Assembly (NCBI GenBank): GCA_041687115.1
Contig: JAWLCP010000006.1
Span: 1 to 62,701 of the forward strand
Reading direction: 5' to 3'
Source of the DNA: Anaerolineae bacterium
GTDB lineage: Bacteria; Chloroflexota; Anaerolineae; B4-G1
Length of the DNA stretch: 62,701 nt
The position numbers and the translations under genes are program-made. Each line of letters begins with the position of its first letter. Position 1 is the first letter of the stretch. The notes under the pieces were generated by a model, which saw only the letters and a list, made by a program, of their open reading frames with translations, was not told where the DNA came from and ran no database searches. Below are positions 393 to 50,927 of the stretch, piece after piece.

Positions 393-421
393 TTGACATG
401 GGGGCGGCTTCAAAGTAGAAT
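393..421 (+). promoter_or_regulatory. sigma-70-like promoter of alaS
   Basis: TTGACA (393-398), 17-nt spacer, TAGAAT (416-421). Confidence 0.6.
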
Positions 422-514
422 ACGACGGCCTCAGGTAGCGGATTCAGGGTCGGCAGACGAGGGCTTTTGCCTGCGGGCCTTTAGCGTGTTCAGGGAAGGG
501 GAGTGCGGAAGCGA

Positions 515-3262
<2,748 letters not shown>

Positions 3263-3356
3263 GCGAGCCGCTGCAGAGGTCAATGTCCAGGGCAAGACGT
3301 CAGAGACGACCTACTGTTCCGGCGGCGCTGCGTGCGTGCGCAGGGGGGAGGGGATT

Positions 3357-4955: not shown

Positions 4956-5416
4956 TGCGCCTTCTGGGTCTCGACCTCGGCGAGCGGCGCATCGGCGTCG
5001 CCATCAGCGATGCGACAGGGACCATCGCGCGGCCTCTGGAGACGCTCGAGCACGTGTCCCGGAAGGCCGACTTCGCCGCCATCGCCGCGCTGGTGGAGGA
5101 GCACGACGTGGAGGCGGTGGTGGTGGGCCGGCCCCTGAGCCTGGATGGGACGGTCGGGCCCCAAGCGGCGTGCGTCGACCGCACCACAGAGGCGCTGGCC
5201 GAGCATCTGGAGGTGCCGGTGATCCCCTGGGACGAGCGGTTCTCCACAGCTGCTGCGGACGAGATCCTGCGGATGACGCGGAAGGAGAAGGCGAAGCGGC
5301 GGGCGCGGGCAGACGGAGAGATCGACGCTATCGCCGCGGCCGTGATTTTGCAGAGCTACCTGGACAGTCAGGCCGACGCGACGTTCCTGGGCCCGCGTGA
5401 ACGAAAGGAAGCGTGA
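4955..5416 (+). CDS. ruvX: Holliday junction resolvase-like protein RuvX/YqgF
   Basis: MRLLGLDLGERRIGVAISD is the typical YqgF N-terminus. ATG 4955 overlaps the upstream TGA (4953-4955). Confidence 0.9.
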   Translation: MRLLGLDLGERRIGVAISDATGTIARPLETLEHVSRKADFAAIAALVEEHDVEAVVVGRPLSLDGTVGPQAACVDRTTEALAEHLEVPVIPWDERFSTAAADEILRMTRKEKAKRRARADGEIDAIAAAVILQSYLDSQADATFLGPRERKEA

Positions 5417-6567: not shown

Positions 6568-6580
6568 CCATCTGGGACGG

Positions 6581-7726: not shown

Positions 7727-7733
7727 GCCCGCG

Positions 7734-8831: not shown

Positions 8832-8897
8832 GGCCGGGCGAGGGTGCGCCTGGGCCGGGTGGCGGAGGCGGCGGACGACGGGGCGGGAGAGCGTCGG

Positions 8898-10493: not shown

Positions 10494-10894
10494 TGTCCCT
10501 CAAACTAGCCAAGGACGGGGTCCAGTGTGCCAGGTTACCCACCAGACCAAAGCCTGGGTGAAGAGCCATCCCGTTTCCAGCGGTGCGGACGAAGGGAGGA
10601 CCTCGTCCGCAGGACTTTGTCTACCACCTATTGTACAACAAGTCGCGACAGATCACAAGAGGCAAAATGGCCGTTTCAGGCGTTTCGATGGAGATTCGTC
10701 CACTACTGGCGGCCTGGGCAATGACACGGCGGCAGACTTGCCGGAGTGCGCAGGTTGAGTACAATTAGTGAGTGGCGACAGGGGCCGCACCTCGTCACGT
10801 CGAATGCTCAACGGTTTCTTCTCAGCGCTGTGGCTGACTGCTCTAGCGAACCGCAGGTCGGGTGAGGATGGAGAGAGGGCAAGGGTAGGCTGCT

Positions 10895-12799
10895 GTGAGT
10901 GTCATCGACGAGGTAAAGGACCGTCTGGACGTCGTCGAGGTGGTCTCTTCCTACGTTCAACTCAACAAGTCGGGGCGGAACTATAAAGCCCTGTGTCCCT
11001 TCCATTCGGAGAAGACCCCGTCGTTTGTGGTCTTCCCGGAGAGCCAGCGCTGGTACTGCTTCGGGGCGTGCAACGAGGGCGGCGACATCTTCAACTTCGT
11101 GATGAAGATGGAGGGGTGGGATTTCCGGACGGCGCTGGAGGAGCTGGCGAGGCGGGCCGGGGTGGAGATCCGGCCCCCGACCCCGGCGCAGGAGGAGGCG
11201 GCCGAGGAGGCCGAGCGGATCCGAGACGTGCTGGCGACGGCGGCCCGCTACTATCACCACGTCCTCTTGAATGCGCCCGAGGCGGAAAAGGCGCGCCGGT
11301 ACGTCGACGACCGCGGCCTGACGGATGCCACCGTAGAGGCGTTTCAGCTGGGCTACAGCCTACCCGAGTGGGATTCGACGCGCGACTACCTCACGAAGCA
11401 GGGGTACAGCGTGGACGATCTGCTGCAGGCGGGATTGGTCATCGAGCGGGAGACCGGTGGGACGTACGATCGATTCCGGGATCGACTCATCATCCCGATT
11501 CGGGACCGCCGTGGCCGGGCGATCGGTTTCGGCGCCCGGACGCTGGATCCGGACGGTGTCCCTAAGTACCTGAACTCGCCCAAGACCTCGGTTTTCGACA
11601 AGAGCAAGACGCTGTTCGGGCTTCATATGGCCCGGCGCGCCATCCGCGACGAGGAGTGCGTGGTCATCGCCGAGGGGTACATGGATGTGATGCAGGCCCA
11701 TCAAGCGGGGTACAAGAACGTGGTGGCTCAGATGGGCACGGCTCTGACGGAGGCCCAGCTGAGGCAGATTCAGCGATACACCAAGCGCATTCTGCTGGCC
11801 CTGGATCCAGACGCGGCGGGCGTGCAGGCGACGCTGCACGGCGTCGAGGTGGCGCGAGAAACACTGGACAAGGAATGGGAGCCGGTCTTCGATCCCCGCG
11901 GGCTGCTGGGGTACGAGGGCCGCCTGGGGGCCGAGATGCGGGTGCTGGAGCTGCCGGCGGGGAAGGACCCGGATGACGTGATCCGCGAGGATGCGGAGGC
12001 GTGGTCGAGGCTGGTAGCGGAGGCATTGCCGGTGGTCGACTTCTACCTGGAGCTCCTGGTGGACGACCTCGACCTGAACGATACGAAGGCGAAAGCGCGG
12101 GCGGTGGACGAGCTGCTGCCGGTTCTTCGGGCGGTGGCGAATCCGGTGGAGCGGGAGGACTACGTCCAGAAGGTCGCCAGGGCGTTGAGGGTGGACGAGC
12201 GGGCGGTGGTAGCGCGTCTGCGGAGCACGGAGCGGGGGGCGGTCAGACGGTACCGCGGCAGGGGGAGGCAGGGGCGACAGGATGGGGATGGGGAGGAAGG
12301 GGGCGACGAGAGGCCGGAGCTCCTTCTGGAGCGCTACTGTCTGTCGATGCTGCTTCGACGCCCGAGCCTGTTGCCGCGGGTCGACACGCTGCTGGACGAG
12401 AGAGGGCTCGATCCCGTGACGCCTGAGGACTTCACGCAGGTGAGCCTGCGAGCGATTTTCGAGGCGTGGGATGCACTCCTCGAGAGCAGGCCGTCTGTCT
12501 CGACGGCAATGCTGCGCGAGGAGCTGCCGGAGGGCGTGCGGGACGAGCTGGACGGGCTGGACGGTGAGGACGACGTGCATCTGGCCGACGAGCAGTTGGT
12601 GCGGGATGTGGTGGTGACGCTGCTGCGCCTGCGGCAGTGGCGTCTCAAGCAGCTGGTCCAGGATCTCAAGCTGCTGATGGTTGAGGCTCACGAGGAGGGG
12701 GATCCACGGGGAAAGCAGTACGACCAGGCTCACCTGGCGCACACGCAGATGCTGTTGAAGACGCAGCGCGCGCTGGCCCAGTCGCGGGAGATTGCGTAG
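10895..12799 (+). CDS. dnaG: DNA primase
   Basis: GTG start. CHC2 zinc finger [25 protein letters not shown]-like, and TOPRIM EGYMDVM...LDPDAAG. Confidence 0.95.
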
Positions 12800-12831
12800 C
12801 TCGCTCTAAGGATGCTTCAGTTGGTGGGGGG

Positions 12832-14436
12832 ATGATGACTGAGGAACAGAAGTCCGCGCCGATCCAGGAAGACGAGATCGTTCAACAACTCCGCGAGGTG
12901 TACGAGACGATCGGGGAGTCGTCGGAGGAGGATTCTCCCTCGGTGTTGGTGGAGCTGCCGGCGGAGGGAGGTCAGGAGGACATCCTGGACGACGAGGAAG
13001 AGCCAACCTCGGAGGAGTTGGAGGAGATCGAGCAGCAGACGGACGAGATCGTGACCGAGCCGCTGATCAAGCCCTCCGACGATCCGGTGCGGATGTACCT
13101 GCTGGAGATCGGCCAGGTACCTCTACTGGAGCACCACGAGGAAGTGTGGCTCTCGTCCCAGCGGGTGGCGGGTACCTACCTGGAGGAGTTGAGAGCGGGT
13201 CTGGCGGAGGGCGACGGCGAGGTGACGGGCCAGCAGGTGCTGGATGCGCTGCTGGATGAGTTGGGGGAGGCGTGGAGCAGCGTCGAGACCCACTGCGGCG
13301 AGCTGGGCATCCCGACGCCCGACTTGAGCGCTCTGACGAAGGAGGCGGCCATCCTCCACGACACCGTATTGCCAGACCAGTCCTCGTACGTCTACTCCTT
13401 CCTGGAGCAGCACGGGTGGACGAGCTCGAAGGACGCGATCCGAACGGCGTTGGCCGACGGGATGTTGAGCGTCTTCAGGGCGCTCTACGTTCTTCCCAGA
13501 GAGGTCATCGACGTGATCGATGAGGTATGGCAGGAGCGCCACGCGTTCCCAGGGCTCGATGAGCTCCGAGACGAGCTCTCGGAGGGGGACCTCGTGGCCC
13601 GCTGGACTGCGGTGACGGACCGCGCGCTGGAGGCTCAGCAATTGATGGCGCAGGCGAATCTGCGCTTGGTGGTGAGCGTGGCGAAGAACTACACGGGGCG
13701 CGGAATATCCTTCCTGGATCTGATCCAGGAGGGGAACATCGGGTTGATGCGTGCGATCCGGAAGTTCGATCACACCAAGGGGTTTAAGTTCTCCACGTAC
13801 GCGACGTGGTGGATCCGCCAGGCGATCAGCCGCGCGATTGCAGATCAGGCCCGCACCATTCGTATCCCGGTCCATATGGTGGAAAAGATCAACCGCCTGA
13901 TTCGCCTCAAGCGACGCCTGGTACAGGAGTTCGGTCGGGAGGCTACGTCGAAGGAGCTGGCTCTGGAGTCGGAAATGCTGACCGCGGACGAGAGAGCCGC
14001 CATCCGCGAGGCGCTGGGCGAGGACCAGCCGCTGACGCCCGCGCTCAAGCACAAGCTGAACGCTGCCTCGGAGGAGGTGCGCCGTATCCTGCGCATCGCG
14101 CTGGAGCCGATGTCGCTGGAGATGCCGGTGGGGACGGAGGAGGATGGCGTCCTGGGTGAGTTCATCGAGGACGAAAGCATCCAGGGACCGGCGGACGCGG
14201 CGTACGATCAGTTGTTGAAGGAGCGCGTACGATCCTCTTTGGAGGTGCTCAGTGAGCGGGAACGAGCCGTGCTGGAGATGCGCTTCGGCCTGAAGGACGG
14301 GAAGACGCACACGCTGGAGGAGGTCGGACAGGCCTTCGACGTCACGCGGGAGCGGGTCCGGCAGATCGAGTCGAAGGCGCTGCGGAAGCTGCGCTATCCC
14401 GGCCGGGGGCAGAAGCTGCGCGACTTCCTGGTGTAG
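12832..14436 (+). CDS. rpoD: primary RNA polymerase sigma factor (sigma-70/SigA)
   Basis: Acidic N-terminus. Region 2 [56 protein letters not shown]. Region 4 [28 protein letters not shown]. Confidence 0.95.
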
Positions 14437-14475
14437 GCCGGACCACGGACGAACCATCGGCGGAGGCAGCCGGAT

Positions 14476-15414
14476 ATGAGACCCTTTCGCGAACACGTGG
14501 CGGTCGCCATAGACGGCGGGGGGATCCGCGGCGTGATCCCCGCTCGGGCGCTGGCCATTCTAGAGGACCACCTGGGCCGGCCGAGTCGGGAGATCTTCCA
14601 CATGGCGGCGGGCACGTCGACCGGGTCGATCATCGCGGCCGGGATCGGGATGGGCCTGAGCGGGGCGGCGATGCACCGGCTGTACACGATGTTCGGTCCC
14701 CTGGTATTCCACCGGTCGTGGCGCGCGTGGCTGTGGCCCCTGGTCCGGTATCGGTATCCTCTGGAGCCGCTGCGGGCTGCGCTGCGGCGGTACATCGGCG
14801 ACCGGACGATGGGGGACTTCTGGACAAACGATCCGCCGATCGACGTGGTCATCACCACGTTCGACGTGGTGGAGAATCGCACCCGGTTCGTCAAGCCGTG
14901 GAAGGAGGAGTACGCCGACTGGCCGGTGGTCAAGGCAGTGCTCGCTTCGTCCTCGGTGCCCACGTATTTCCCCCCCGTCGAGGCGCGGTTCGTAGACGGC
15001 GGGGTCGGGGCGTACTCGAACCCGTGTTACCTGGCTGCGTATGAGGGGCAATTCGTCCTCGACTGGGACCCCGCTCGGACCACGTTGATCAGCCTGGGCA
15101 CGGGCCGCGATCCGCACAGCCTCCGGCCCAAGGACGTGATGCGGTTCTGGGCGTGGCAGTGGATTGGGCCGGTGCTGGGGGCTTTCCTGCGGTCGGCCGA
15201 CGATCAGCAAGTTCACTTGGTGGATACGTTCTTCGAAGCGCTCGACTTCCGCCGCTTCCAGGTCGATCTGCGCGAAAACGTCGCGATGGACGATTTCACC
15301 CAGATGGCCGAGCTGACTGTGTACGGCACGGAGCTGGGGCAGAAGATTCTGAACGACCAGACGGATCGGGCGCTGGAGATCAAGGCCAGAAGGCCCGAGC
15401 CCCGCTGCAAATGA
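14476..15414 (+). CDS. patatin-like phospholipase
   Basis: Oxyanion GGGIRG, nucleophile elbow GTSTG, and a DGG catalytic Asp motif (FVDGGVGAYSNP). The stop overlaps the murE ATG (ATGA at 15411-15414). Confidence 0.85.
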   Translation: MRPFREHVAVAIDGGGIRGVIPARALAILEDHLGRPSREIFHMAAGTSTGSIIAAGIGMGLSGAAMHRLYTMFGPLVFHRSWRAWLWPLVRYRYPLEPLRAALRRYIGDRTMGDFWTNDPPIDVVITTFDVVENRTRFVKPWKEEYADWPVVKAVLASSSVPTYFPPVEARFVDGGVGAYSNPCYLAAYEGQFVLDWDPARTTLISLGTGRDPHSLRPKDVMRFWAWQWIGPVLGAFLRSADDQQVHLVDTFFEALDFRRFQVDLRENVAMDDFTQMAELTVYGTELGQKILNDQTDRALEIKARRPEPRCK

Positions 15415-17021
15415 GGCTGTCCGATCTCCTGGATCACCTCCCGGCGGTGCTGAACTGCCTGGGCGAGGACGTCGAAATCGAGGGCATCGCGGCTGACTCC
15501 CGCCGCGTGGAGCCGGGCGATCTGTTCGTCGCCATCCCGGGTGGGCAAGTGGACGGGCACCGCTTCGTGGGCGAGGCGGTGGACAGCGGCGCGGTCGCCG
15601 TGATTGGGGAGCTTCCTCCTGACGAGGTGGACGGGGGCGCGGGAGGGGATTTCACGTACGTGCGTGTGCGGAACGCGCGGGAGGCGTGGGGGTGGTCGTG
15701 CGCTGCTTGGGAGGGGTTGCCGTCGCGGAAGATGACGCTGGTGGGCGTCACGGGCACGGACGGAAAGACGACCACGGTGACGCTCCTGCACGGGATCCTG
15801 CGGGCGGCCGGCGTGAAGGCGGGGATGATCAGCACGGTGAAGGCGATCATTCCCTCGGGCGACTCAGGGGAGGGGAGTGAGACGGAGGCGATGACGGGCC
15901 TCCATACCACGACGCCGGATCCGCCCGCGGTCCAGCAGTACCTGGACGGGATGGTGGAGGCGGGCGCGACCCACGCGGTCCTGGAAGTGACCTCGCACGG
16001 GCTGGCCCAGGATCGGGTGGCGGGCTGTGACTTCGACGTGGCGGTGGTGACGAACATCACCCACGAGCACCTCGATTATCACGGGTCTCTGGATGCCTAT
16101 CGGAGGGCAAAGGCCAAGTTGTTCGAGGGATTGGACGGCTCTTTTCGCAAGCCGGGCGTCCCAAAGGTCTCGGTCTTGAACGGAGATGACGATTCGCTCT
16201 GCCTCTTGCGATCGCTGCGTGCCGATCGTCAGATCGTCTACTCGCTGGACGGGGACGCCGACGTGACCGCCCGTGGCGTGGCGTATGACGTAGACCGAAC
16301 CCGACTGCGCCTTCATACGCCCATGGGTCAGGTTCCGATTGAGACCGCGCTGGTTGGGCGGTACAATGTCCGGAACATCCTGGCCGCTGCCGCGGCAGGG
16401 GTGGCCCTCGGTGTTCCGCTGGAGGCGATAGCCGAGGGAATCGCGTCGTTCTGGGGTGTGCCGGGGCGGATGGAGCGCATTGAGGCGGGGCAGGCGCATC
16501 TGGCCATCGTCGACTTCGCCCATACGCCGAACGCGCTGAAGCAAGCCCTCATGGCGGCCCGGGGGATGGCGGAGGGGAGCGGCCGAGTCGTGGTCGTGTT
16601 CGGGTGCGCCGGTCTGCGGGATCGCGAGAAGCGAACGCTGATGGGGCGGATCGCCGGGCAGCTGGCGGACGTCGTCATCGTGACCGCAGAGGATCCGCGC
16701 ACCGAGAGCCTGGAGGCGATCATGGCGGAGAGCGTCAGAGCCGCGGCCGCTGAAGGGAAGCGGGAAGGTGTGGATCTGTTTCCGGTGTCGGATCGAGGCG
16801 AGGCGATCCTGCGAGCCTGTGAGATGGCACGGGCGGGCGACGTGGTGATCGCCTGCGGGAAAGGGCACGAGCAGAGCATGTGCTTCGGGACCACGGAGTA
16901 CCCCTGGGACGATCGCCGGGCGATGCGGCTGGCGCTGCGGGGAGAGACTCTGAGCACGCTGCCGACGGCACGGTCGGACGGCGGGGCTCAACGGGGGGAG
17001 GACCGGGCGTGCCTGGGATAG
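15411..17021 (+). CDS. murE: UDP-N-acetylmuramoyl-L-alanyl-D-glutamate--2,6-diaminopimelate ligase
   Basis: Internal ATG 15411 of ORF 15153-17021. DSRRVEPGDLFVAIPGGQVDGHRF, P-loop GVTGTDGKTTT, and a DNPR-like region (AEDPRTE) typical of Mur ligases. Confidence 0.9.
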   Translation: MRLSDLLDHLPAVLNCLGEDVEIEGIAADSRRVEPGDLFVAIPGGQVDGHRFVGEAVDSGAVAVIGELPPDEVDGGAGGDFTYVRVRNAREAWGWSCAAWEGLPSRKMTLVGVTGTDGKTTTVTLLHGILRAAGVKAGMISTVKAIIPSGDSGEGSETEAMTGLHTTTPDPPAVQQYLDGMVEAGATHAVLEVTSHGLAQDRVAGCDFDVAVVTNITHEHLDYHGSLDAYRRAKAKLFEGLDGSFRKPGVPKVSVLNGDDDSLCLLRSLRADRQIVYSLDGDADVTARGVAYDVDRTRLRLHTPMGQVPIETALVGRYNVRNILAAAAAGVALGVPLEAIAEGIASFWGVPGRMERIEAGQAHLAIVDFAHTPNALKQALMAARGMAEGSGRVVVVFGCAGLRDREKRTLMGRIAGQLADVVIVTAEDPRTESLEAIMAESVRAAAAEGKREGVDLFPVSDRGEAILRACEMARAGDVVIACGKGHEQSMCFGTTEYPWDDRRAMRLALRGETLSTLPTARSDGGAQRGEDRACLG

Positions 17022-17773
17022 AGACCGGTGCAGGGGAGCTGTTCTACACCGTGGGGCGAGGGCCGACGAGCGGGCCCACGCTGGTCCTGGTGCACGGGGC
17101 GGGGGGATCGCGGATTCACTGGCCTCCAGAGCTGCGGCGTATGGACCAAGCGACCGTATACACGCTGGACCTGCCCGGTCACGGCCGGTCGGGGGGACCG
17201 GGACGTGAGACGATCGAGGGGTATGCAGACGCCGTCGCCGCGTTCCTGGAGGCGGTCGACGTCGGTCGGGCCGTCGTCGTGGGGCACTCCATGGGCGGCG
17301 CGATCGCTCAGACGCTTGCTCTGTATCATCCCGTCCCGGTGAGAGCGCTTGGATTGATCGCAACGGGTGCGCGGCTTCGTGTCGCACCGGCGATTCTGGA
17401 GACCATCCAGGACGATTTCAAGGGTGCGGTCGAGCTTATTACCCGTTACGCGTGGTCCGCGGACGCAGACCAATCGTGGGTGGAGCTGGGTCGCGAGGCC
17501 CTCAAGGACACCGGACCGGAGGTGTTATTGGGCGACTTCCTGGCGTGTGATCAATTCGACCTCATAGATCGCCTGGGAGAGATCGAGGTCCCCGCCCTAG
17601 TGGTGAGCGGGACGGCGGACAAGCTGACCCCGACGAAGTACGCACGGTTTCTGGCTGAGCACATTCCGGCTGCACGGCTCGTCACCCTGGAAGGGGCGGG
17701 CCACATGGTGATGTTGGAGCAACCGCAGGAGGTTGCGAAGGCGGTCCGGGGATTCGTGACGGCGCTACGGTAG
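17009..17773 (+). CDS. alpha/beta hydrolase
   Basis: GTG 17009 lies 6 nt after GGGGGGAGG. HGAGGS oxyanion region and nucleophile elbow GHSMGG. Overlaps the murE 3' end by 13 nt. Confidence 0.8.
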   Translation: MPGIETGAGELFYTVGRGPTSGPTLVLVHGAGGSRIHWPPELRRMDQATVYTLDLPGHGRSGGPGRETIEGYADAVAAFLEAVDVGRAVVVGHSMGGAIAQTLALYHPVPVRALGLIATGARLRVAPAILETIQDDFKGAVELITRYAWSADADQSWVELGREALKDTGPEVLLGDFLACDQFDLIDRLGEIEVPALVVSGTADKLTPTKYARFLAEHIPAARLVTLEGAGHMVMLEQPQEVAKAVRGFVTALR

Positions 17774-17804
17774 CGCCAGGCTGGAATCACAGCGTCGCCG
17801 CGCG

Positions 17805-17834
17805 GCGCCAGCGTCTGGGCTGGCGCTTCTTCTT
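17805..17834 (+). terminator. intrinsic terminator after the hydrolase gene
   Basis: GCGCCAGC (17805-17812) / GCTGGCGC (17819-17826) stem followed by TTCTTCTT. Confidence 0.5.
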
Positions 17835-17839
17835 ACCCG

Positions 17840-19108
17840 TTACTCGACGAACAAGTTCAGGAACTCCTCGTTGCTCTTGGTGCTTCGGAGGACCTGAAGC
17901 AGCTCCTCCATGGCCTGGGCTTGCGTGTAGCCGGAGGACAGTGAGTCGATAAATCGCTGTCGCATGAGCCAGACCTTCCGCCGCGTCTCCTCATCCAGAA
18001 GCAACTCCTCCCGCCGCGTGCCCGAGCGTTCGATGTCGAAGGCGGGGAAGATGCGCCTCTCCTCTAGCCTGCGGCTGAGGTGAAGCTCCATGTTGCCCGT
18101 GCCCTTGAACTCCTCGTAGATCATGTCGTCCATGCGGCTGCCCGTATCCACGAGGCAGGTGGCAATAACCGTCAGGCTGCCGCCGTCCTCGATGTTGCGT
18201 GCGGCCCCGAAGAAGTGCTTCGGAGGGTAGAGGGCGGCGGGGTCGAGGCCGCCGGATAGGGTGCGGCCGCTGGGTTGCACGACCAGGTTGTACGCGCGGG
18301 AGAGGCGGGTGATGCTGTCGAGGAGGATGGCGATGTCCTCACCCTCCTCAACCAGACGCTTGGCACGCGCCAGAACCATCTCTGCGACCTGGGTATGGCT
18401 GCGGGCGTGCTCGTCGAAGGTTGAGCTGATGACCTCGGCGTCCACCGAACGGTCCATGTCCGTGACCTCCTCCGGGCGCTCGCCGATGAGGACGACCATC
18501 AGACGGACCTCCGGATGGCTGCTGGTGATGCCATTCGCGATGTGCTTGAGGACCGTGGTCTTACCGGCCTTCGGCGGAGACACGATGAGCCCGCGCTGCC
18601 CTTTGCCGACGGGCGAGATCATGCTGAGGAGACGGGTCGTCTTATTGCCCCGAGGTCGCTCCAGGTAGAAGCGCTCCAGGGGGAAGATGGGCGTCAGTGA
18701 CTCGAAGCGGGGGCGCCGCTTCGCCGCCTCCGGGTCGCGGGCGTTCACCGCCTCTACGCGCAGGAGGCTGTAGTACCTCTCGTTCTCCTTGGGTGGCCTT
18801 ATCTGGCCCAGCACCAGGTCGCCGGTTCGCAAGCCGAAGCGATGGATCTGAGACGACGACACATAGATGTCGTTTGAGCTCGGCTTGTAATCGTCGGGAC
18901 GCAGGTACCCTTTGTTCTCGTCGATGATGTCGAGCACGCCCCCGCCGAAGATCAAGCCCTCGCGCTCTGTCTTGGCCTGGAGCAGGCGCATGATGAGCTC
19001 TTCCTTCTTCAGCGAGCTGTAGCCGGAAACGTCCCATTCTCTGGCTAACTCGCGCAGCTCGTCCATCGTCTTTTCCCGCAAGCTGGTTATGTCTATCTGC
19101 TCGTTCAC
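17840..19108 (-). CDS. rho: transcription termination factor Rho
   Basis: N-terminal Rho_N ([17 protein letters not shown]-like), RNA-binding [16 protein letters not shown], and Walker A SPPKAGKT. Confidence 0.95.
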
Positions 19109-37818: not shown

Positions 37819-39756
37819 ATGAGATCTCGCTCTTGTTTCCTACTTCATCCCGTCGTCGTTTCGGCGGTCGTGGCCCTTCTCGTCGTCGGTGTCTTGTATG
37901 TGGATACCCTTGCGCTTCCCCTGTTCTCCGACGATCTGGTTCAGATTCCGTGGTTGGAGTCGATTTCCTGGCGTCAGCTCTGGACGAGCCCTAGCCCGTA
38001 CGGCTACTACCGTCCGCTCTGGTATTCGATCTGGCGCGTATGGGGCGGCCTTGTGGGAGGGCTGCATCCACCCGGTCTGCACCTTCTCAACCTGATCGCT
38101 CACGGAGTGGCCACGTCGCTCACCGGCCTTCTGATCGCCGGCTGGTTGCCGGGTTCCGTCACCCGCGAGGAGCGGGCTGTCGCTGCGGCGCTGGCGGCGG
38201 CATTCTTTGCCGTGTTCCCTTTTTCACGCCAGGCCGTGGCGTGGCCTGGGGCCGTCTACAATCCCCTGGTCAGCGCGATGGCCACCGCGGCAGTGCTTGC
38301 CTACGATCGGGGCCGGGCCGGAGGGAGCGGGCTGTGGATTGGCATCGCGCTTCTGATGGGCGCCGTCGCGCCGTTCACGTACGAGAGCGGGATCGTGGTC
38401 GCCCCGCTGCTGGTCGGAGTGGAGGTGATCGGATGGTCGCGCGGTCGGTGGCGGAACGGCTCGTGGTGGGCCATGGCGTTCATCGCCCTCTTCGTCCTCA
38501 CCTCGTTGCTCTGGAGATCGATGCGGGGGGTGGGGGTCGTCGCCTCCGGTCTGACCCCGATCGACCTCTGGCATAACACGGCCTACCTGATTCAGGGGCT
38601 GATCTATCCCGTCGCCCCGTTGGTGCAGTGGTTCGCAGGGTGGGTGGGTCTGGACCCGGTCCTTGCTCTCTGGCTCGGTGCACTGCCAACCGCGGCGCTC
38701 TTGGGTTGGTGGGCGGTGCGGCACAGCGTGGATGTGCTGTTGCTGGGCGCCGCGTGGTTCGTGGTGTTTGCCTTGCCGCCGCTGGTCTCCATGAAGGCCG
38801 ACTGGTTTGCCCTGGCTCCACGCTTCCTCTACATGACGGCGGCCGGTGTCTCCCTGATCTGGGCGGGGGCCCTGGGCCCGTGGATCGCTCGGGGAGTAGG
38901 CGTGCGCCGGGTCGCCGTGGCCGCCCTTGTGCTCGCAGCGCTCCTGATCCCGGCGGCGTGCTTCGTGCGCCAGGGGATAAGGCTCTACCACATGGCGGGG
39001 GAGAGTATCTGGGATGCAGCTCGCGTCGCGGCTGCGGGCGGGCGTGTGTTGCTGGTCAATCTGCCGCGGCGCATCACCCCGGTTGGACGTGTCTACCCGC
39101 TTGGTTTTGAGGGCGTGACGCCGTTGCCTATGCGGGTCACGGCAGATGGGCTCGTGTACGTGCACACCGGGGTTCGAAATGCGGCGAATGCGGTGGCCTT
39201 CGGGGTCGTCGCCACGGAGGATCCCGAAGGCTACTCCTACGAGCTCTTCGGGCGACCCGCGGGGTGGCAGGATATGGCAGATGCCGTGCGCGATGGGGGC
39301 ATCGTGTATCTCACGCGCTATGAGTCAGAGCGCATCCGTCTGGTTGAGGCTGGAAACGTGGAGCGGACCCCGATCAACGCCGGCTCATCTGTCCAGTTCG
39401 GCAATCGTGTCGACCTGCTTGATACGTCGTGCTCGTGCGACCAGGCGGGTCGCGTCCGTCTCACAGCCTGGTGGCGGGCTCCGTCCGGGGTCGAACCCGA
39501 CGTGAGCGTCTTCGCCCACCTGCTGAGTTCTGAGGAGACGCTGGTCGCTCAGGCCGACGGTCGGCCGTTGTTGGGGATGTTTCCCTTCTGGATGTGGAGC
39601 CCCGGCGAGGTTGTGCGTGACGTCCGGCAGTTTGCCCCTGTTGAGAGCGGCACGTACCGGATCCGGCTGGGGATATGGGAACCGGCAAAGGGAGAGCGGT
39701 GGCAGGCCACCAACGGGCTTGGTGACGCGGCGTCGTTCTCTGTTCGGTGCCCTTGA
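37819..39756 (+). CDS. polytopic membrane protein with C-terminal soluble domain (possible GT-C-type glycosyltransferase)
   Basis: 645 aa with more than 10 predicted TM helices. An acidic DD pair sits in the first loop (LPLFSDDLVQIPW), and about 200 C-terminal residues are soluble. The family assignment is inference only. Confidence 0.6.
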   Translation: MRSRSCFLLHPVVVSAVVALLVVGVLYVDTLALPLFSDDLVQIPWLESISWRQLWTSPSPYGYYRPLWYSIWRVWGGLVGGLHPPGLHLLNLIAHGVATSLTGLLIAGWLPGSVTREERAVAAALAAAFFAVFPFSRQAVAWPGAVYNPLVSAMATAAVLAYDRGRAGGSGLWIGIALLMGAVAPFTYESGIVVAPLLVGVEVIGWSRGRWRNGSWWAMAFIALFVLTSLLWRSMRGVGVVASGLTPIDLWHNTAYLIQGLIYPVAPLVQWFAGWVGLDPVLALWLGALPTAALLGWWAVRHSVDVLLLGAAWFVVFALPPLVSMKADWFALAPRFLYMTAAGVSLIWAGALGPWIARGVGVRRVAVAALVLAALLIPAACFVRQGIRLYHMAGESIWDAARVAAAGGRVLLVNLPRRITPVGRVYPLGFEGVTPLPMRVTADGLVYVHTGVRNAANAVAFGVVATEDPEGYSYELFGRPAGWQDMADAVRDGGIVYLTRYESERIRLVEAGNVERTPINAGSSVQFGNRVDLLDTSCSCDQAGRVRLTAWWRAPSGVEPDVSVFAHLLSSEETLVAQADGRPLLGMFPFWMWSPGEVVRDVRQFAPVESGTYRIRLGIWEPAKGERWQATNGLGDAASFSVRCP

Positions 39757-45531: not shown

Positions 45532-46050
45532 TCAGGCCGAACCACCGCGGCGCCGCGGCCGTAACAGCGGCCGGATGAGCAACAGGATGCCGAGCAGAAT
45601 CAGCAACACCGGCCAATACTGCCCCATGAACCCCAGGGCTCCGAAGACCGACCCAAAGATGCAGAAAAGGGTCAGGCTAATCAGAATAAGCCAACCCCCT
45701 GCGCCAGCAGCCGCACGCGTGTCTCCGCCCAGCAGATCGAACAACACGATGCCGATGCCCACGAACCCGGGGATGAGGGACCAGATGTAGGCCCAGCTGT
45801 CCCAATCTCCGCTGGCGTACTGATACGCGAGTATCCCGCCGATACCTGCGACGATGCTGGCCGGGATCGAGAGTGCCGCCACGCCCGTCGCCGACCCGAT
45901 CAGCAACAGCAGGACGCCGAACCCAATGATGATCCACGGCCATGAGAAATGGATCCTGAGGCCCGGCAGCAACTGGATGACCAGGACCAGCAGGCCGAGA
46001 AGGACCAACAGCAGACCACCGACCAGGTTCGACCTCCGGGTGCGATTCAT
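45532..46050 (-). CDS. LiaI/LiaF-like (DUF5668-type) multi-TM protein
   Basis: 172 aa, almost entirely TM. The W-P-hydrophobic motif occurs twice (SWPWIIIGFGVLLLLIG and YWPVLLILLGILLLIRP). ATGA overlap with the upstream gene. Confidence 0.65.
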   Translation of the reverse strand: MNRTRRSNLVGGLLLVLLGLLVLVIQLLPGLRIHFSWPWIIIGFGVLLLLIGSATGVAALSIPASIVAGIGGILAYQYASGDWDSWAYIWSLIPGFVGIGIVLFDLLGGDTRAAAGAGGWLILISLTLFCIFGSVFGALGFMGQYWPVLLILLGILLLIRPLLRPRRRGGSA

Positions 46051-46508
46051 GGCTGCCCTCCTGTGTCGCTACCCCCGGCCTCGCCGCCTGCCCTCGGGTC
46101 ATGCTGTGAACCCTCCGCCTCCGATGTGGGCTCCTGTCTCTCCATACGCGCGATCGCCCGTTCAAGCTCCGCGTTGATCCTCGTCAGCGCCGACAACAGG
46201 TGCGGACGGGCCTCCCGCCACGTCTGCTCCCCGGCCAGCCGAGCCGACTCGGCCGCCTTATCGGCTTCGCTGCGCAGGGCCCTTGCCTCGGCCGACTCGC
46301 TGGCCTCACTGATCGCGCGATCGATCTTGTCCGCCATCTTCTGCAGGCCCCCCTGGATCGATGCCAGATGCCGTTGCGTGTCTTCCCGCTCCCACGCAGC
46401 GCGGATTGCCCGGTCCAGGCTATTGCCCAATGCCTCGAAGCGCCTGGCGACCTCCTCCCAGGCTTCTTCGGTGGTTTGCTCCTCTCCCCCGACCTGTTCC
46501 TCCTTCAT
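46047..46508 (-). CDS. all-helical A/E/R-rich hypothetical protein
   Basis: 153 aa with no TM helix and a heptad-like charged sequence (WEEVARRFEALGNSLDRAIRAAW..., AEARALRSEADKAAESARLAGEQ). Its stop overlaps the next ATG. Confidence 0.55.
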   Translation of the reverse strand: MKEEQVGGEEQTTEEAWEEVARRFEALGNSLDRAIRAAWEREDTQRHLASIQGGLQKMADKIDRAISEASESAEARALRSEADKAAESARLAGEQTWREARPHLLSALTRINAELERAIARMERQEPTSEAEGSQHDPRAGGEAGGSDTGGQP

Positions 46509-46530
46509 TGGCTACCTCTTGCTTTGTCTG

Positions 46531-47559
46531 TCACTCCAGTTCCTCTAGCTTCTCCTCCCACTTGGAGCGGAGGTTGTTGTACAGATCCTCGCTGATGTCG
46601 CCGTTCATCAGCCGTGCGTCCAGATTGTCCAGCATGTCCCGGACCTCCTTGGCGGTCTGGGGCGTGGGGACAGCTCCGCTGCCTCCTTGCTGCTGTTGCT
46701 GCTGGGCCGGCTGCTGCATGCTCTGCGTCAGCATCTGGGCCATCGCTGCGCCCATCCCGACGCCGGCGCCCAGGCCCACTCCCGCGCCCGCGGTCCCCTC
46801 AGGTTGCTGCGCCGCGTCCCGCATGCCGCGCGCTGCCTGGAACTGGAGATAGGCCTGCATGTCGCCGATGGCGCCCATCGAAGCGCGCTCGTCGATCGCT
46901 TTCGCTGTCTCCTCTGTGGGGCCAATGTACTCGGCGTAGACCGACGTCAGCATGATGCCGCGAGCGGCGAACTCCTCGGCTGCCTTGGCCCGCATGGCTG
47001 CCACCATCTCCTCCGTCTTGGCGGCAATCTCGAGGACCGACTCACCCATCTCGCCGACCAGGTCGGCCAGTTTCGTGAGGATCATCGAGCGGAAGAAGTC
47101 CTTGATGTTTGCCGTCCGGTAGAGCCCTTGCGTGCCCACGATCTTGTTGACGAAGAGCTGGGGGTCGGCGACCTGAATGCCGTACGTCCCCCGCGCCTGC
47201 ACGCGCGCCATCCCGAGCTCCGAATCCTTGATCGTGATGGGCGTGGGGGTACCCCACTTAAGGTCTGTGAACTCGCGGAGGCTCACGAAATAGACTTCGG
47301 CTTTGAACGGCGTCTCGCCGGAGAATGCCTTCCCGATCAGGTTCGTGAGCAGAGGGATGTTCGCTGTGGTGATCGTGTGCCGACCGGGCCCGAACGTATC
47401 GAGCGCCTGACCATCCCGGAAGAACACTGCGGCCTGACTATCGCGAACGATCACCTGGGAGCCGATGCGGAAGTCGCCCGATCCCCTTTCGGGAACCCGG
47501 TGGACCATCTCCGATGCGGACTCGTCCATGAACTCTACTACGTCGAAGACTCGTGCCAT
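46531..47559 (-). CDS. SPFH/Band-7 domain protein of the YdjI/COG4260 type with SHOCT-like C-terminus
   Basis: VVEFMDESASEMVHRVPERGSGDFRIGSQVIVRDSQAAVFFRDGQALDTFGPGRHTITTANIPLL...PFKAEVYFVSLREFTDLKWGT matches the COG4260 N-terminal pattern. The C-terminus EVRDMLDNLDARLMNGDISEDLYNNLRSKW is SHOCT-like. A Gln/Ala/Gly-rich linker joins them. Confidence 0.8.
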   Translation of the reverse strand: MARVFDVVEFMDESASEMVHRVPERGSGDFRIGSQVIVRDSQAAVFFRDGQALDTFGPGRHTITTANIPLLTNLIGKAFSGETPFKAEVYFVSLREFTDLKWGTPTPITIKDSELGMARVQARGTYGIQVADPQLFVNKIVGTQGLYRTANIKDFFRSMILTKLADLVGEMGESVLEIAAKTEEMVAAMRAKAAEEFAARGIMLTSVYAEYIGPTEETAKAIDERASMGAIGDMQAYLQFQAARGMRDAAQQPEGTAGAGVGLGAGVGMGAAMAQMLTQSMQQPAQQQQQQGGSGAVPTPQTAKEVRDMLDNLDARLMNGDISEDLYNNLRSKWEEKLEELE

Positions 47560-47629
47560 TTCTGTTGCCTCCTCTATCTGTGCCTATCAGTGACCGGGCC
47601 CCCGCAGGGGGGTCCGGGGCGCCTTGTCA

Positions 47630-48151
47630 TCACTCAGACTCCAGGATCAAACGGTGGCGTCGATCAAATGTCGTGTTCGCCTCGCGCGTGATCTCTTGTA
47701 TGACCTCGATGGTTTCCTCTATCGCTTCTCCCTCGGAAATCGCTTCCCGCAGGCGATCGTTTGCGACGTCCAACCGGTCAGCGTAATCGATCAGTGCGGC
47801 GTCGAAGTCGTAGAGCTGACTCAGCTCCCCCTCTCTGATCTTGACTGCGTCGAACAGCCCGGCGTAGCCGTAGCTGGCGAACCGAATCCGGTCGGCGAAC
47901 GTCTTGAGTTGAGTCACGGCGCTCTCCACGTCGTCGACCAGCTCCAACCGGCCGTGCTCCAGAAGCTTCTTCTGCGCCGAATCCAGGCGTCGGCGCTGGG
48001 CCTCCAGTTTGTCGGCAAGCATCTCGCGCAGGAGCTTGTCCGCCTGACGCCGCTTCTGGCGTTTCTGATAACCACTCCACCCTGGGATTGCGTTGATCAC
48101 CTTCTCTACAGCTGTGTACTGCTCCTCTACCTTATCGTGGATGTCTGGCAT
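47630..48151 (-). CDS. helical hypothetical protein
   Basis: 173 aa with no TM helix and a charged helical sequence (QKRQKRRQADKLLREMLADKLEAQRRRLDSAQKKLLE). I recognise no family. Confidence 0.5.
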   Translation of the reverse strand: MPDIHDKVEEQYTAVEKVINAIPGWSGYQKRQKRRQADKLLREMLADKLEAQRRRLDSAQKKLLEHGRLELVDDVESAVTQLKTFADRIRFASYGYAGLFDAVKIREGELSQLYDFDAALIDYADRLDVANDRLREAISEGEAIEETIEVIQEITREANTTFDRRHRLILESE

Positions 48152-48239
48152 CTCTCGAATTCTCCTTTTCCCCGACTCGTCAAGTTGGCCGATTGTACCC
48201 GTCTTCTATACGCAAGCGGATCCGGTCGGTTGCGCACTG

Positions 48240-48767
48240 TCACTCGGTCAGGAAGATCTCCACCCCGCAGTAGGGGCACTTGATCACCCCCTTCCCAGCC
48301 AATTCGAGCTCGCCACCGCAGTTGGGGCAGCGATTATTGCCCCGCATCTGGCTTGCGTCCCGGGAATAGAGCATCCTCTCGTCCCAGTTCACGTACCCGG
48401 CAAACAGGTCCTTATCGACCAGGTCGTAGATCCAGGTCTTGACCTGATCGCGGTTCACATCCAGTTCTATGGCTGCCTCGGGGATCGATACTTGTCCCTG
48501 GGTACGGATCATCCCCAGCAGTTTCTGCTTCCTCTCCACCTCGGCCATCGCGGCTGCCTCTCGCTTACCGCGGACCAGCAGGAAGACCCCCACGCCTACG
48601 ATGGGGGCCGCGATGATGAACACCAACACTGCTCCCAGCACGGCTCCCGTGAGCTCCAGGTTGCTTCCAGGCCCGGCAGCGCTGGCCAGAAGCCACGCGC
48701 CGGATAGGACGCAGAGGCCCATACCAGCCGCAATGAGGACAATGCCGAGCGTCTTCCCTGTGTTCAT
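48240..48767 (-). CDS. membrane-anchored wHTH-like / C-terminal zinc-ribbon protein
   Basis: Two N-terminal TM helices, then GMIRTQGQVSIPEAAIELDVNRDQVKTWIYDLVDKDLFAGYV (wHTH-like), then CPNCGGELELAGKGVIKCPYCG. AGGAGG RBS. Confidence 0.65.
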   Translation of the reverse strand: MNTGKTLGIVLIAAGMGLCVLSGAWLLASAAGPGSNLELTGAVLGAVLVFIIAAPIVGVGVFLLVRGKREAAAMAEVERKQKLLGMIRTQGQVSIPEAAIELDVNRDQVKTWIYDLVDKDLFAGYVNWDERMLYSRDASQMRGNNRCPNCGGELELAGKGVIKCPYCGVEIFLTE

Positions 48768-48816
48768 GGTCAGTTATTGCCTCCTTCGCTTCATTGTAAG
48801 CCGCAGATGCCCCACG

Positions 48817-50682
48817 CTATCCAAAGCCGCCTCCACCGCCACCACCACCGCCACCGCCTCCACCTCCACCTCCGGAGAAGCCACCACCGCCGCCGGAGCT
48901 GCTCGGCTGGCTGGAGAGCGTGCTCCCGGCCGAGTTAAGCATCGCCGTCAGGCCGTCGGACATGCTCTGGAGGCTGCCGGACAGGCCGTCGGACATGTCC
49001 TGGAGGGAGCCTGTCGGCCGTCCCATCTCCGCCGGTTTGCCCATCCCGGGCGGTCGAGACCCGCCGGCGTAGCCCGGCCGTGGCATCGGCATGTACCAGA
49101 TGGGGATCGGAACCGGTGCCTTCTCCACGCTCGAGAACTTCCGTACCCAGACCTGGTCGACCCCGAACGCGATGGCGTAGGGGAGGTACTTCTCGAACTG
49201 ACCCGTGGCTTCACTCAGGTCCGTGTACCGTTCGATGTCCTGGAGATAGCGCTTGAACGCCTTCCAGCGCGCCGCCTGCTCCGAGCCTTTGTGGGTCTTC
49301 GCCGGCATCCATTGCCCCACAATCGCCAGCCCGATGGCGGTGATGCCCATCCCCACAAAGGGGCAGATCACCGCGCCGGTATACTCGGAGAAGATGGCCG
49401 CAGCCGAGATGCCGCAGGCGAACACGCCCGCCAGCACCGCGAGTCCCAGCCCCACGTACCGCTTACGAACCTGACTGGGGTTTCCCGTGAAGTACCCTCT
49501 CTTCACAAGCTGCTTGTACAGCTGGCGGTTGATGCCGGGGATGGCCCGGTAGAACTCGTTCCGCAGGTCGGACATACGTCGCGACTCGCGTCCTTTGAAC
49601 ACGTCCCGTAGCAGTTGCTGCTCGTAGGACAGCAGGTCACCACTCTCTTTCTCGGTGCGGTGGAACGTGAAGTCGTAACCGCTTCTGATGCCGAGGAGGC
49701 CGCGCTCCTGACCTTCTTCGATGGTCAGGTACCCCCGCCGGGCGAGATCCACGAGGGTGGCGACGATGTCCTCCATGTCTGCCTTCTCGTCCACAAGCGT
49801 CCCCGCGACTCCCGGCCGGTCGTCCGATGGTGGCTCCGACAGGTACTCGGCCGGCAGGGACACCTCCGGATCGCGCCCGCGCAGATACCACAGGAGCACG
49901 AGCAAGAGTGGCCCACCCACCAGAAACACCACGCCGAGAGCGCCGAGACCGAGGCTCACGATATCTCTGTACCTCTCGTCCCAGACGGCTCTGCGGTCGT
50001 AGGCCGCCTGCCAGTCCGGCTTCGACCCTTGAACGATGCCGTGGGGAAACTGGACGCGCACCTCGAATTCCTGGCCCGGGTCAATCCTCTCTTGGGCGGT
50101 GAAGGCGACCGTGCCCGTGCTCCTTCCGCTTATCGACGCCTTCGTGTCATAGGCTGCCACTGGATCGGCCGTTGCTCCCCGTGGCAGCTCTACGGTCACC
50201 GTTGAGTTGTAGACCGGGAAGTCGCGGTCGGCGTAGACCGCCTTCCAGTACAGCTGATCGCCGCCGTCGTAGTAGCGGAGGCCGCCCGTGACGGTGTACC
50301 GCAGGATAAACGTATGGGACGTGTTCGAGGTGTAGGGAAACTCCCACCGGATCCGAAAATCCCCGTCCTCCACCGAGGTCTGATAGGTGTAGCTGCCACC
50401 CCGACCTGGCTCATACTGACGTTCCCCCTCCCACACCTCCACGTCTGTAATGCCCTCGAGCCGATCCATGGGGATGTTGCGGTACCCGAAGTGGAAGGAC
50501 CCGCTGGTGAAGGCTATCTCCTGCACCTCCTCCACTCGGAAGTCGCCGTTTTCCAAGACCTCGATGTTGACGTCGAAGCGTTCCCAATGAAGCGTCTGCG
50601 TCTGAGCCTGAGTCGTTCCGGTGAGGACGAGCCCCGCCGCCAGGGCGACCAGCAGAATCCAGTGGAGTTGTTTCACCTTCAT
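48817..50682 (-). CDS. DUF2207 family membrane protein with poly-Gly C-terminus
   Basis: ATG 50682 (AAGGAA RBS). The longer ORF start at 50826 lies inside the acpP terminator. Signal peptide, FDVNIEVLENGDFRVEEVQEIAFTSGSFHFGYRNIP, internal TM helices, and the tail SSGGGGGFSGGGGGGGGGGGGGGGGFG. Confidence 0.8.
   Translation of the reverse strand: MKVKQLHWILLVALAAGLVLTGTTQAQTQTLHWERFDVNIEVLENGDFRVEEVQEIAFTSGSFHFGYRNIPMDRLEGITDVEVWEGERQYEPGRGGSYTYQTSVEDGDFRIRWEFPYTSNTSHTFILRYTVTGGLRYYDGGDQLYWKAVYADRDFPVYNSTVTVELPRGATADPVAAYDTKASISGRSTGTVAFTAQERIDPGQEFEVRVQFPHGIVQGSKPDWQAAYDRRAVWDERYRDIVSLGLGALGVVFLVGGPLLLVLLWYLRGRDPEVSLPAEYLSEPPSDDRPGVAGTLVDEKADMEDIVATLVDLARRGYLTIEEGQERGLLGIRSGYDFTFHRTEKESGDLLSYEQQLLRDVFKGRESRRMSDLRNEFYRAIPGINRQLYKQLVKRGYFTGNPSQVRKRYVGLGLAVLAGVFACGISAAAIFSEYTGAVICPFVGMGITAIGLAIVGQWMPAKTHKGSEQAARWKAFKRYLQDIERYTDLSEATGQFEKYLPYAIAFGVDQVWVRKFSSVEKAPVPIPIWYMPMPRPGYAGGSRPPGMGKPAEMGRPTGSLQDMSDGLSGSLQSMSDGLTAMLNSAGSTLSSQPSSSGGGGGFSGGGGGGGGGGGGGGGGFG
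48820..48897 (-). repeat. low-complexity GGN codon run (coding poly-Gly tail of DUF2207)
   Basis: The plus strand reads ccaaagccgcctccaccgccaccaccaccgccaccgcctccacctccacc... Confidence 0.9.
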
Positions 50683-50820
50683 GATCTGTAGTTCCTTGCC
50701 AGGAGTGTTGCCGTTTCTACAGCTGATTGTCTTGCCATACTGTGACGGATGTGTGCATATTCCTCTCCTCCGATCGAAGATGTTCACATTATAGCCCAGA
50801 ATTGTCAAATCAGCTACCGA

Positions 50821-50852
50821 ACACAAAAGACCACCGGCGTACGCCGGCGGCC
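50821..50852 (-). terminator. intrinsic terminator downstream of acpP
   Basis: On the minus strand: CCGCCGGC-GTAC-GCCGGTGG hairpin followed by TCTTTTGTGT. Confidence 0.6.
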
Positions 50853-50927
50853 TTGCTGTCTGTCAGGAGAGGGCAGCGTCTCTTGGAGAGCTGACCCCTC
50901 TTCTGCGGTGAACCCTTCGTTCCGTGC

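Follow-up and report, generated by a model that had tools for sequence, protein, structure and literature searches.

A two-gene SPFH unit, apparently ancient and undescribed, within a six-gene cluster of an Anaerolineae bacterium

What do six closely packed genes, several of them encoding membrane proteins, have to do with each other in the genome of a member of the Chloroflexota? The genes in question occupy positions 45532-50682, on the minus strand, of a 62,701-nucleotide stretch of DNA from an Anaerolineae bacterium (GenBank assembly GCA_041687115.1, contig JAWLCP010000006.1; the whole stretch is called the window), and are named g1 to g6 here in the order of their transcription. A previous reading of the sequence alone, made without database searches (the sequence-only reading), interpreted them as one envelope-stress system of the Psp type that lacks PspA itself. 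All six co-directional open reading frames (ORFs) that it described are indeed present, but our analyses suggest a different relationship among them. On balance, if by no large measure, we favour a nested assembly in which g3 and g4 form the core dyad, g1 and g2 a second, separable dyad, and g5 and g6 recent local additions, with the core working as a membrane-docked SPFH scaffold in the manner of the SamGHI proteins of Bacillus subtilis.

Related loci were gathered in four scans of GTDB species-representative genomes, three of them anchored on g3 (one close alignment and two distant ones) and one on g2. The six proteins were placed on these loci by phmmer or by hidden Markov models (HMMs), with gene calls taken from our own ORF maps, and 245 distinct g3 loci were left after removal of duplicates. 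Each scan contributed its 80 top-ranking matches to these loci, which come mainly from metagenome-assembled genomes (MAGs), and the percentages derived from them are descriptive. Homologues assign the window itself to an Anaerolineae/Chloroflexota MAG.

The partner of g3 is almost invariably g4. Downstream of g3, 221 loci have 1.3 kb of DNA or more, and g4 lies there in 218 of them: in 216 it is found on the same strand at most 1.6 kb away, and two further cases (L045 and L126) were recognized on inspection. The true exceptions are three orphan copies of g3, two of which (L198:6001-6528 and L230:5953-6525) adjoin xanthine-dehydrogenase-like genes, the third (L221:5983-6519) adjoining rpoB. The gap between g3 and g4 has a median of 40 nt, and junctions of 0 or -1 nt occur in loci of Bacillota, Acidobacteriota, Actinomycetota and Xenobia. 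The pair is spread over at least ten phyla, archaea among them; in Chloroflexota it occurs in Anaerolineae, Ardenticatenia, Caldilineales, Ktedonobacter and Thermoflexales, and elsewhere in Armatimonadota, Eremiobacterota/Xenobia, Acidobacteriota, Actinomycetota, Bacillota, Planctomycetota, Aminicenantes, Bathyarchaeia and Nitrososphaeria. A g3 homologue from WOR-3 is recorded as a protein sequence, with no genomic context. The other four genes are far less constant: g1-g2 are joined to g3-g4 in 62 of the 186 loci with room upstream, or about one third, and g5 and g6 are each found in 7 of 196 loci, all of them the closest relatives. Since linkage is universal for g3-g4 alone, the six genes as one co-conserved system are refuted by the co-conservation test that the sequence-only reading itself had proposed, and a core of two plus two genes is established in its stead. 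Literature searches on DUF2207/SPFH and DUF4178/SPFH yielded no description of a dyad of g3 with an SPFH protein, and g3-g4 apparently constitute an ancient, deeply conserved and undescribed two-gene unit.

The g3 gene (47630-48151, minus strand) encodes a soluble helical protein of 173 aa that matches no Pfam family. Its sole family match is a full-length one to the NCBIfam model NF047596 (LIMLP_15305; residues 14-169 aligned to positions 17-173 of a model of 175 positions, E 1.2e-12), and the score of 48 bits, far under the equivalog cut-off of 210, makes g3 a distant relative of that family rather than a member. NF047596 itself is a Leptospira hypothetical protein with no function attached, whose locus tag occurs in the literature only in a table of small RNAs, one of which it neighbours. 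The 327 homologues of g3 that we collected share two invariant motifs, IPG(W/F/Y)xGY..R..RR.AD..LR at the N-terminus and (S/T)YGY(A/S)G(L/F)FD further on, and an exhaustive profile search puts the size of the family, which includes both Bacteria and Archaea, at 1,597 clusters (50% identity) at E<=1e-3 and 970 at 1e-10. The AlphaFold2 (AF2) model built from the alignment agrees with the earlier description of a helical protein, being a compact helical bundle with a predicted local distance difference test score (pLDDT) of 77 and a predicted template modelling score (pTM) of 0.68. The N-terminal 25 residues are disordered in this model and bear the most conserved motif (IPGWxGYQ.R..RR.AD..LR); SYGYAGLFD maps to a low-confidence stretch between the long helices 2 and 3. 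In a Foldseek search of PDB the best match was the four-helix bundle of Chlamydia IncA (E 0.03, TM-score 0.50-0.56), the sole ESCRT-III entry, CdvB2, appearing at rank 40 (E 1.3, TM-score 0.27). The family also occurs in fusions, to DUF4178 in P0199 and in L126, to an N-terminal Ser/Thr protein kinase in P0228 (NWF70684.1, Chloroflexota), and to an N-terminal zinc ribbon in a Clostridia MAG (L226:5740-6510), where no g4 lies directly downstream on the short contig. Because of the tight or overlapping junctions with g4, the conserved peptide motif and the fusions to DUF4178, kinases and zinc ribbons, g3 probably serves the g4 oligomer as a stoichiometric adaptor or regulator.

The other half of the core, g4 (46531-47559, minus strand; 342 aa), is an SPFH/Band-7 protein of the soluble type exemplified by B. 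subtilis YdjI, as the sequence-only reading proposed. It matches Band_7_1 (PF13421) over positions 6-210 of 211 with 201.5 bits (cut-off 24) and has no transmembrane (TM) helix, no hydrophobic 19-mer exceeding the threshold. YdjI, also called SamI, we take to belong to the same PF13421/COG4260 family, the papers saying only that it is a 'band 7' protein with a C-terminal zinc ribbon. YdjI is likewise soluble and without a TM anchor (PMC8581546). In the C-terminal part of g4, a linker rich in Gly, Ala and Met leads to a helical tail of 35 aa (LDNLDARLMNGDISEDLYNNL...). This tail contains no Cys motifs and hence no zinc ribbon of the YdjI type, and the SHOCT-like character ascribed to it earlier was not confirmed either: the isolated tail gave no Pfam match to SHOCT (PF09851) at E<=10, and 71 of 500 shuffles equalled its score of 0.8 bits against an HMM that we made from the canonical SHOCT tails of 14 orthologues. 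The position had been chosen well, though, as true SHOCT domains stand at the same place in the orthologues of L172, L136 and L054, and PF13421 is reported to be fused to SHOCT more often than to any other domain (PMC3581485). Orthologue tails beyond the linker are of five types, namely a double zinc ribbon, SHOCT, HTH_17, GYF_2 and the window's own LDNLDxRLxxGEISExxYxKL; the last is found in 96 loci and the double zinc ribbon, by CxxC count, in 73. The first four types were confirmed with Pfam on representatives (the double zinc ribbon in L126 and L192), and g4 orthologues whose varied tails were assigned with Pfam include L077:6567-7616, L206:6595-7632, L059:10575-11678, L136:3086-4111 and L126:5262-6302. 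An HTH_17 tail, of the excisionase type, is also present in a cultured organism, Thermanaerothrix daxensis GNS-1, whose dyad is that of L206. Judged by sequence, the g4 C-terminus appears to be a swappable slot, occupied in the window by a module other than SHOCT.

At the downstream end of the cluster, g5 (46047-46508, minus strand) encodes an acidic, Ala/Glu/Arg-rich helical protein of 153 aa and g6 (45532-46050, minus strand) a 172-aa protein with six TM helices. Both are variable even among the closest relatives, L001 having g5 without g6, L006 g6 without g5 and L002 neither, and g5 homologues of about 50% identity in other Chloroflexota adjoin kinases, peptidases or other unrelated genes, with no g4 or g6 nearby. 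We collected 41 homologues of g5, and the only matches of these relatives are sub-threshold ones to generic amphipathic helices (apolipoprotein, YtxH, spectrin, sll1863-type). The AF2 model of g5 comprises three helices (pLDDT 68, pTM 0.30) and found no match in PDB with Foldseek, a negative that is weak given the low confidence of the model. As for g6, it is made of six hydrophobic helices and no soluble domain. The WPW/YWP repeats in its TM helices, which had led to its being called a protein of the LiaI/LiaF type, are evident, but the likeness at the family level is weak: against the LiaI/LiaF-type TM domain (PF22570 / PF18917) g6 of the window scores 16.3 bits (cut-off 27), LiaF-TM matches nine of nine family members with a best E of 7.5e-5 and always below the Pfam cut-off, and LiaI-LiaF-like_TM1 matches three of the nine, none above it. 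Other marks of a Lia system were likewise absent where we looked for them, with no Toastrack domain in g6, no PspA (LiaH) in the window and no LiaRS among the four genes downstream (about 10 kb). We conclude that g5, a passenger translationally coupled to g6, and g6 itself are lineage-specific and recent local additions.

Could one of the helical proteins nevertheless stand in for PspA? The sequence-only reading was right that no recognisable PspA/IM30 is encoded here. PspA_IM30 (PF04012) is found in none of the six proteins, and phmmer and jackhmmer searches of the whole window with E. coli PspA (the query sequence having been validated against PDB 4WHE) and Synechocystis Vipp1 (taken from the same search output) detected no PspA. 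Its further suggestion, that g3 or g5 fills the vacant role, found no support in comparisons of fold or profile. Beyond the negative Foldseek searches, profiles of g3 and g5 run against all PDB sequences, PspA and Vipp1 included, retrieved nothing relevant, and hhalign comparison of the two with a PspA/Vipp1 alignment gave probabilities of 0.3-0.7%; both were consequently rejected as PspA/ESCRT-III candidates. As far as sequence profiles and models can tell, neither g3 nor g5 is a detectable PspA relative, while a functional analogy of g5 to PspA without homology is possible.

When all ORFs of about 310 loci and of the window were searched with PspA and Vipp1, exactly one match came up, in L126, where the genes follow each other in the order g1, g2, an MNT gene, g3, a g3::DUF4178 fusion, PspA (PF04012, 173 bits) and g4 with a double zinc ribbon. 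This locus (L126:1-8359 = JBHIEC010000085.1) comes from the Anaerolineae MAG b3.sp2_bin.41; about 150 nt further downstream lie a gene resembling that for RNase PH (judged by eye) and then one for a protein with a double zinc ribbon, a TM segment and LysM (by Pfam). The coexistence of a true PspA with g3 in this locus argues against g3 replacing PspA. Genes of other kinds are inserted between g3 and g4 elsewhere, encoding DUF4178 in L166, L172 and L174 (two of them Armatimonadota) and a zinc ribbon-TM-Toastrack protein in L210 (Pyrinomonadaceae); L192 and L199 have a similar-sized insert at this place, with no Pfam match where tested. DUF4178, Toastrack, band-7, SHOCT and LiaI-LiaF-TM all figure as Psp partner domains in a published survey (PMC11237479). 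The dyad is thus connected with the Psp partner network through the PspA, DUF4178 and Toastrack genes that relatives carry inside it, and in this respect the Psp-type theme of the sequence-only reading holds.

The model of one PspA-less envelope-stress system comprising all six genes, in which g3 or g5 would replace PspA/IM30 and g6 would be a LiaI-like anchor, has to be weighed against these data. That the window lacks PspA, that the ATGA coupling of g5 to a weakly LiaF-TM-like g6 recalls LiaI-LiaH, and that the g5 family has sub-threshold amphipathic matches (apolipoprotein, YtxH, sll1863-type) all agree with it; the restriction of g5 and g6 to seven loci each and the g5 homologues that occur elsewhere without g4 or g6 do not, nor do the Foldseek results (weak for g5), the fruitless PDB-sequence profiles, the low hhalign probabilities and the genuine PspA beside g3 in L126, and we regard this model as improbable.

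The membrane proteins of the cluster are encoded by its first two genes. The g1 protein (48817-50682, minus strand; 621 aa from the ATG) is, as proposed earlier, a DUF2207 membrane protein with a poly-Gly tail: both Pfam models exceed their cut-offs, the N-terminal DUF2207 domain (PF09972) with 85.6 bits (cut-off 24.4) and the C-terminal one (PF20990) with 164.8 bits (cut-off 33), and the topology comprises an N-terminal signal/anchor, the extracytoplasmic DUF2207 N-terminal domain, three TM helices, the cytoplasmic DUF2207_C and a Gly tail of 25 residues. In g2 (48240-48767, minus strand; 175 aa), the two N-terminal TM helices, seen by hydropathy, and the C-terminal CPxC...CPxC zinc ribbon of the sequence-only reading are borne out, the four Cys residues of CPNC...CPYC being invariant in 20 homologues, with zinc-ribbon profile scores near or below threshold. 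Its winged helix-turn-helix (wHTH) segment is a marginal call, as the isolated cytoplasmic segment matches PCI with 22.4 bits (cut-off 22), along with HTH_28 and HTH_23, all at or near threshold.

Where g1-g2 accompany the core, the usual order is g1-g2-g3-g4, but it is g3-g4-g1-g2 in the Actinomycetota loci L202 and L227 (g1 of L202 is DUF2207 by Pfam). In MAGs with a lone g3-g4 pair, the same assembly has g2 or g1-g2 on a different contig, as in the pairs L247/L064, L249/L051, L251/L053, L253/L062, L259/L073, L275/L105 and L300/L122. Finally, HEPN/MNT-type genes have been inserted between cluster members in L011, L039 and L126, the set being kept. These inserts are of toxin-antitoxin type; those at L011:8527-9244 and at the same position in L039 were judged by eye, and the nucleotidyltransferase at L126:2487-2873 was confirmed with Pfam. 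The permuted order, the tolerated insertions and the same-MAG co-occurrence of unlinked genes argue for a functional link of g1-g2 to the core, beyond inherited synteny. The two pairs are dyads that can be separated but, in this part of the tree, mostly occur together.

The same separability is, on the other hand, what one would expect if g3-g4 were a general SPFH scaffold and partner serving another membrane client, with no tie to Psp or to stress, and if g1-g2 were independent genes sharing nothing but synteny with it. In many genomes g3-g4 indeed stand alone, between convergent or unrelated housekeeping genes; most dyads have no neighbour of the Psp type and lie instead among such genes as Lon, pyruvate dehydrogenase, PurL and succinyl-CoA ligase, and the diversity of g4 tails (HTH_17, GYF_2, SHOCT, zinc ribbon) suggests varied outputs. 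What speaks against this scenario is that the inserts and fusions repeatedly bring in domains of the Psp network (PspA, DUF4178, Toastrack), and that the g1-g2 link survives permutation in another phylum and is matched by co-occurrence within the same MAG, which synteny alone explains poorly; we consider the scenario unlikely, though not negligible. We rejected Lon, pyruvate dehydrogenase, PurL and NUDIX, as well as a NERD-like protein, DUF5693 and succinyl-CoA ligase, as partners of the dyad in distant loci, these being housekeeping or unrelated genes with inconsistent linkage. Archaeal dyads (Bathyarchaeia L223; L178, L188 and L215) have flanks of their own, an upstream gene for a protein of about 250 aa with an N-terminal zinc ribbon and a downstream one for a multi-TM protein of about 115 aa (5161-5904 and 7523-7870 in L223, with weak Pfam matches only), and this pair may be a counterpart of the membrane-receptor pair.

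How might the proteins work together? In B. subtilis, SamG and SamH recruit the soluble SPFH protein SamI, which in turn recruits PspA; SamI thereby positions PspA and restrains signalling by SamGH (PMC8581546; bioRxiv 10.64898/2026.02.06.704340). By analogy, and with somewhat more confidence than doubt, we infer for the nested assembly a SamGHI-like, membrane-docked SPFH scaffold with g3 as an obligate partner and a role in envelope stress. Here g1 and g2 would be the membrane-integral receptor or sensor, g1 providing the only sizeable extracytoplasmic domain, and would dock an oligomeric g4 scaffold at the cytoplasmic face of the membrane. As the obligate, stoichiometric partner of g4, g3 would act as adaptor or regulator through its N-terminal motif and YGYAG loop, either controlling the assembly of g4 or coupling it to effectors, for example a PspA whose gene lies elsewhere. 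The exchangeable output or anchoring end would be the variable C-terminal tail of g4, in the window the 35-aa helical one. In terms of architecture, g1 would thus take the role of SamH, g2 that of SamG and g4 that of SamI.

The same work on SamI (bioRxiv 10.64898/2026.02.06.704340), which reports that SamGH signalling is unleashed when the SPFH protein is lost, lends itself to another reading, that of a signalling device in which g2 is a membrane-tethered wHTH/zinc-ribbon regulator restrained by g3-g4 as SamGH are by SamI, with g1 sensing the envelope. The cytoplasmic segment of g2, highly conserved and with near-threshold wHTH matches, would fit such a device, as would the kinase::g3 fusions and the HTH_17 tails on many g4 orthologues. 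These wHTH matches are marginal, however, and PCI-like, that is, of a protein-interaction fold; moreover, most dyads have no g2 nearby. We therefore hold the signalling device to be clearly unlikely.

The scaffold reading can be set beside two published frameworks. With the pspA-ydjGHI (pspA-samGHI) operon, the cluster shares a soluble, TM-less SPFH protein of the band-7 type whose low-complexity linker is joined by a short module at the C-terminus, the co-encoding of the SPFH gene with a zinc-ribbon membrane protein and a larger membrane protein with a low-complexity tail, and a link to PspA, direct only in the relative L126. It differs from that operon in the lack of pspA, both from the operon of the window and from the window as a whole, in the helical tail of g4 as opposed to the zinc ribbon of YdjI, and in the universally linked g3, which is without counterpart in the published Bacillus operon. 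With the Psp network of Ravi et al. 2024 (PMC11237479), it has in common Band_7_1, the SHOCT and zinc-ribbon tails of the orthologues, DUF4178, Toastrack and the LiaF-TM-like g6; the network as presented there is anchored on PspA, which is nearly always absent from g3-g4 loci, and the passages of the paper retrieved by keyword contain no occurrence of DUF2207 and nothing resembling the g3 family or a dyad of g3 with Band_7_1.

Several points weigh against the SamGHI-like scaffold. The analogy is one of architecture, from which we infer all of the physical interactions, and two of the three presumed counterparts are non-homologous: g1, with DUF2207, to the TPM-domain protein YdjH, and g2, with two TM helices, a wHTH segment and a single zinc ribbon, to YdjG with its double zinc ribbon, NTF2-like domain and TM segment. 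A pspA gene is adjacent in just one of about 310 loci. Two thirds of the sampled g3-g4 loci have no g1-g2 nearby, so that the dyad can evidently work with other membrane receptors or with none, and g4 might bind the membrane directly through its Gly/Ala/Met-rich linker, which would make a receptor unnecessary. Lastly, as the loci are the best 80 matches per scan, the percentages given here are no unbiased census.

A complementary view of the core is offered by other operons that join an SPFH gene to a partner, such as stomatin/QmcA-NfeD (YbbJ) and HflK/C-FtsH. As in these, the SPFH gene g4 is paired near-invariably, and across many phyla, with one dedicated small partner; unlike in these, the partner is a soluble four-helix protein instead of a membrane protein (NfeD, with an OB fold) or a protease, and the SPFH protein lacks a membrane anchor of its own. 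It is a tentative proposal, falling a little short of an even chance in our estimation, that g3 represents a large, ancient family of dedicated physical partners of Band_7_1 SPFH proteins without TM helices, in a role like that of NfeD towards stomatins, and that the dyad is a self-contained membrane-scaffold unit, hitherto unrecognised, with lineage-specific receptors and effectors. DUF2207 with the TM-wHTH-zinc-ribbon protein, DUF4178, Toastrack, PspA and Ser/Thr kinases would then all be plug-in partners of the dyad.

The layout of the cluster in the window is largely as described by the sequence-only reading. Its upstream boundary is the intrinsic terminator of acpP (50827-50854, minus strand), with a 12-pair stem containing eight G-C pairs, a loop of 4 and a T-rich tail; the gaps from g1 to g5 are short (49, 88, 70 and 22 nt), g5 and g6 share an ATGA overlap, and the downstream flank is a genuine cysS (tRNA-synt_1e + DALR_2). 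AGGAG motifs resembling Shine-Dalgarno sequences precede g2 to g6, and no credible terminator was found inside the six-gene cluster, two internal matches being coding sequence at chance level (3 found vs 3.6 expected). The ATG of g1 follows an untranslated leader of about 105 nt and has a weak ribosome-binding site. Right after the acpP terminator, 5' of g1, perfect TTGACA and TATAAT hexamers (50788-50808, minus strand) attract attention; they are only 9 nt apart, and therefore do not make a canonical sigma-70 promoter, the promoter scan likewise calling none there on the minus strand. An intergenic hairpin between g3 and g4 (47590-47625) was also rejected as an attenuator, as its folding equals that of shuffles (z = 0.02) and it is unconserved.

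The flanking genes bear on one more explanation, that the cluster is an anti-phage defence system or cargo of a mobile element. SPFH and zinc-ribbon proteins occur in some defence systems, as a matter of general knowledge, and HEPN/MNT-type inserts are seen in L011, L039 and L126. The setting, though, is one of stable housekeeping genes, with acpP (PP-binding) and cysS on either side, an NTP transferase, MreB and a gene without a Pfam match completing, with cysS, the four genes downstream of g6 (to about 10 kb), and MreB, isoleucyl-tRNA synthetase (IleRS), a type-2 IDI-like FMN enzyme and polyprenyl synthase in the wider window. Conservation looks vertical across the phylum, PADLOC-DB 2.0 returned noise only (PDC-S13, E 0.002; ZorA coiled-coil, E 0.002), and a tblastn search of plasmids with g3 gave no matches; a role in defence or a mobile origin is thus extremely improbable. 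Away from the cluster, positions 1-18000 of the window stand out by a G+C content of 0.66-0.73 with sustained positive GC skew, against about 0.60-0.65 in the remaining window, and by numerous long overlapping ORFs on both strands, and positions 37819-39756 (plus strand), where the sequence is locally GC-rich and AT-skewed, hold an ORF of 645 aa without a Pfam match at E<=1e-5.

To our knowledge, among the widespread soluble Band_7_1 SPFH proteins only YdjI/SamI of Bacillus, with its partners PspA, YdjG and YdjH, has been studied. The invariant neighbour of such an SPFH protein found here, a helical protein of about 175 residues with two strictly conserved motifs, is a testable candidate for the regulation or membrane coupling of TM-less SPFH proteins in general. 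With DUF2207 and the protein with two TM helices, a wHTH segment and a zinc ribbon, two more membrane partners can be counted among those associated with SPFH and Psp proteins. Genome annotation could gain as well: thousands of entries now called 'hypothetical protein' beside SPFH genes could be given a consistent name.

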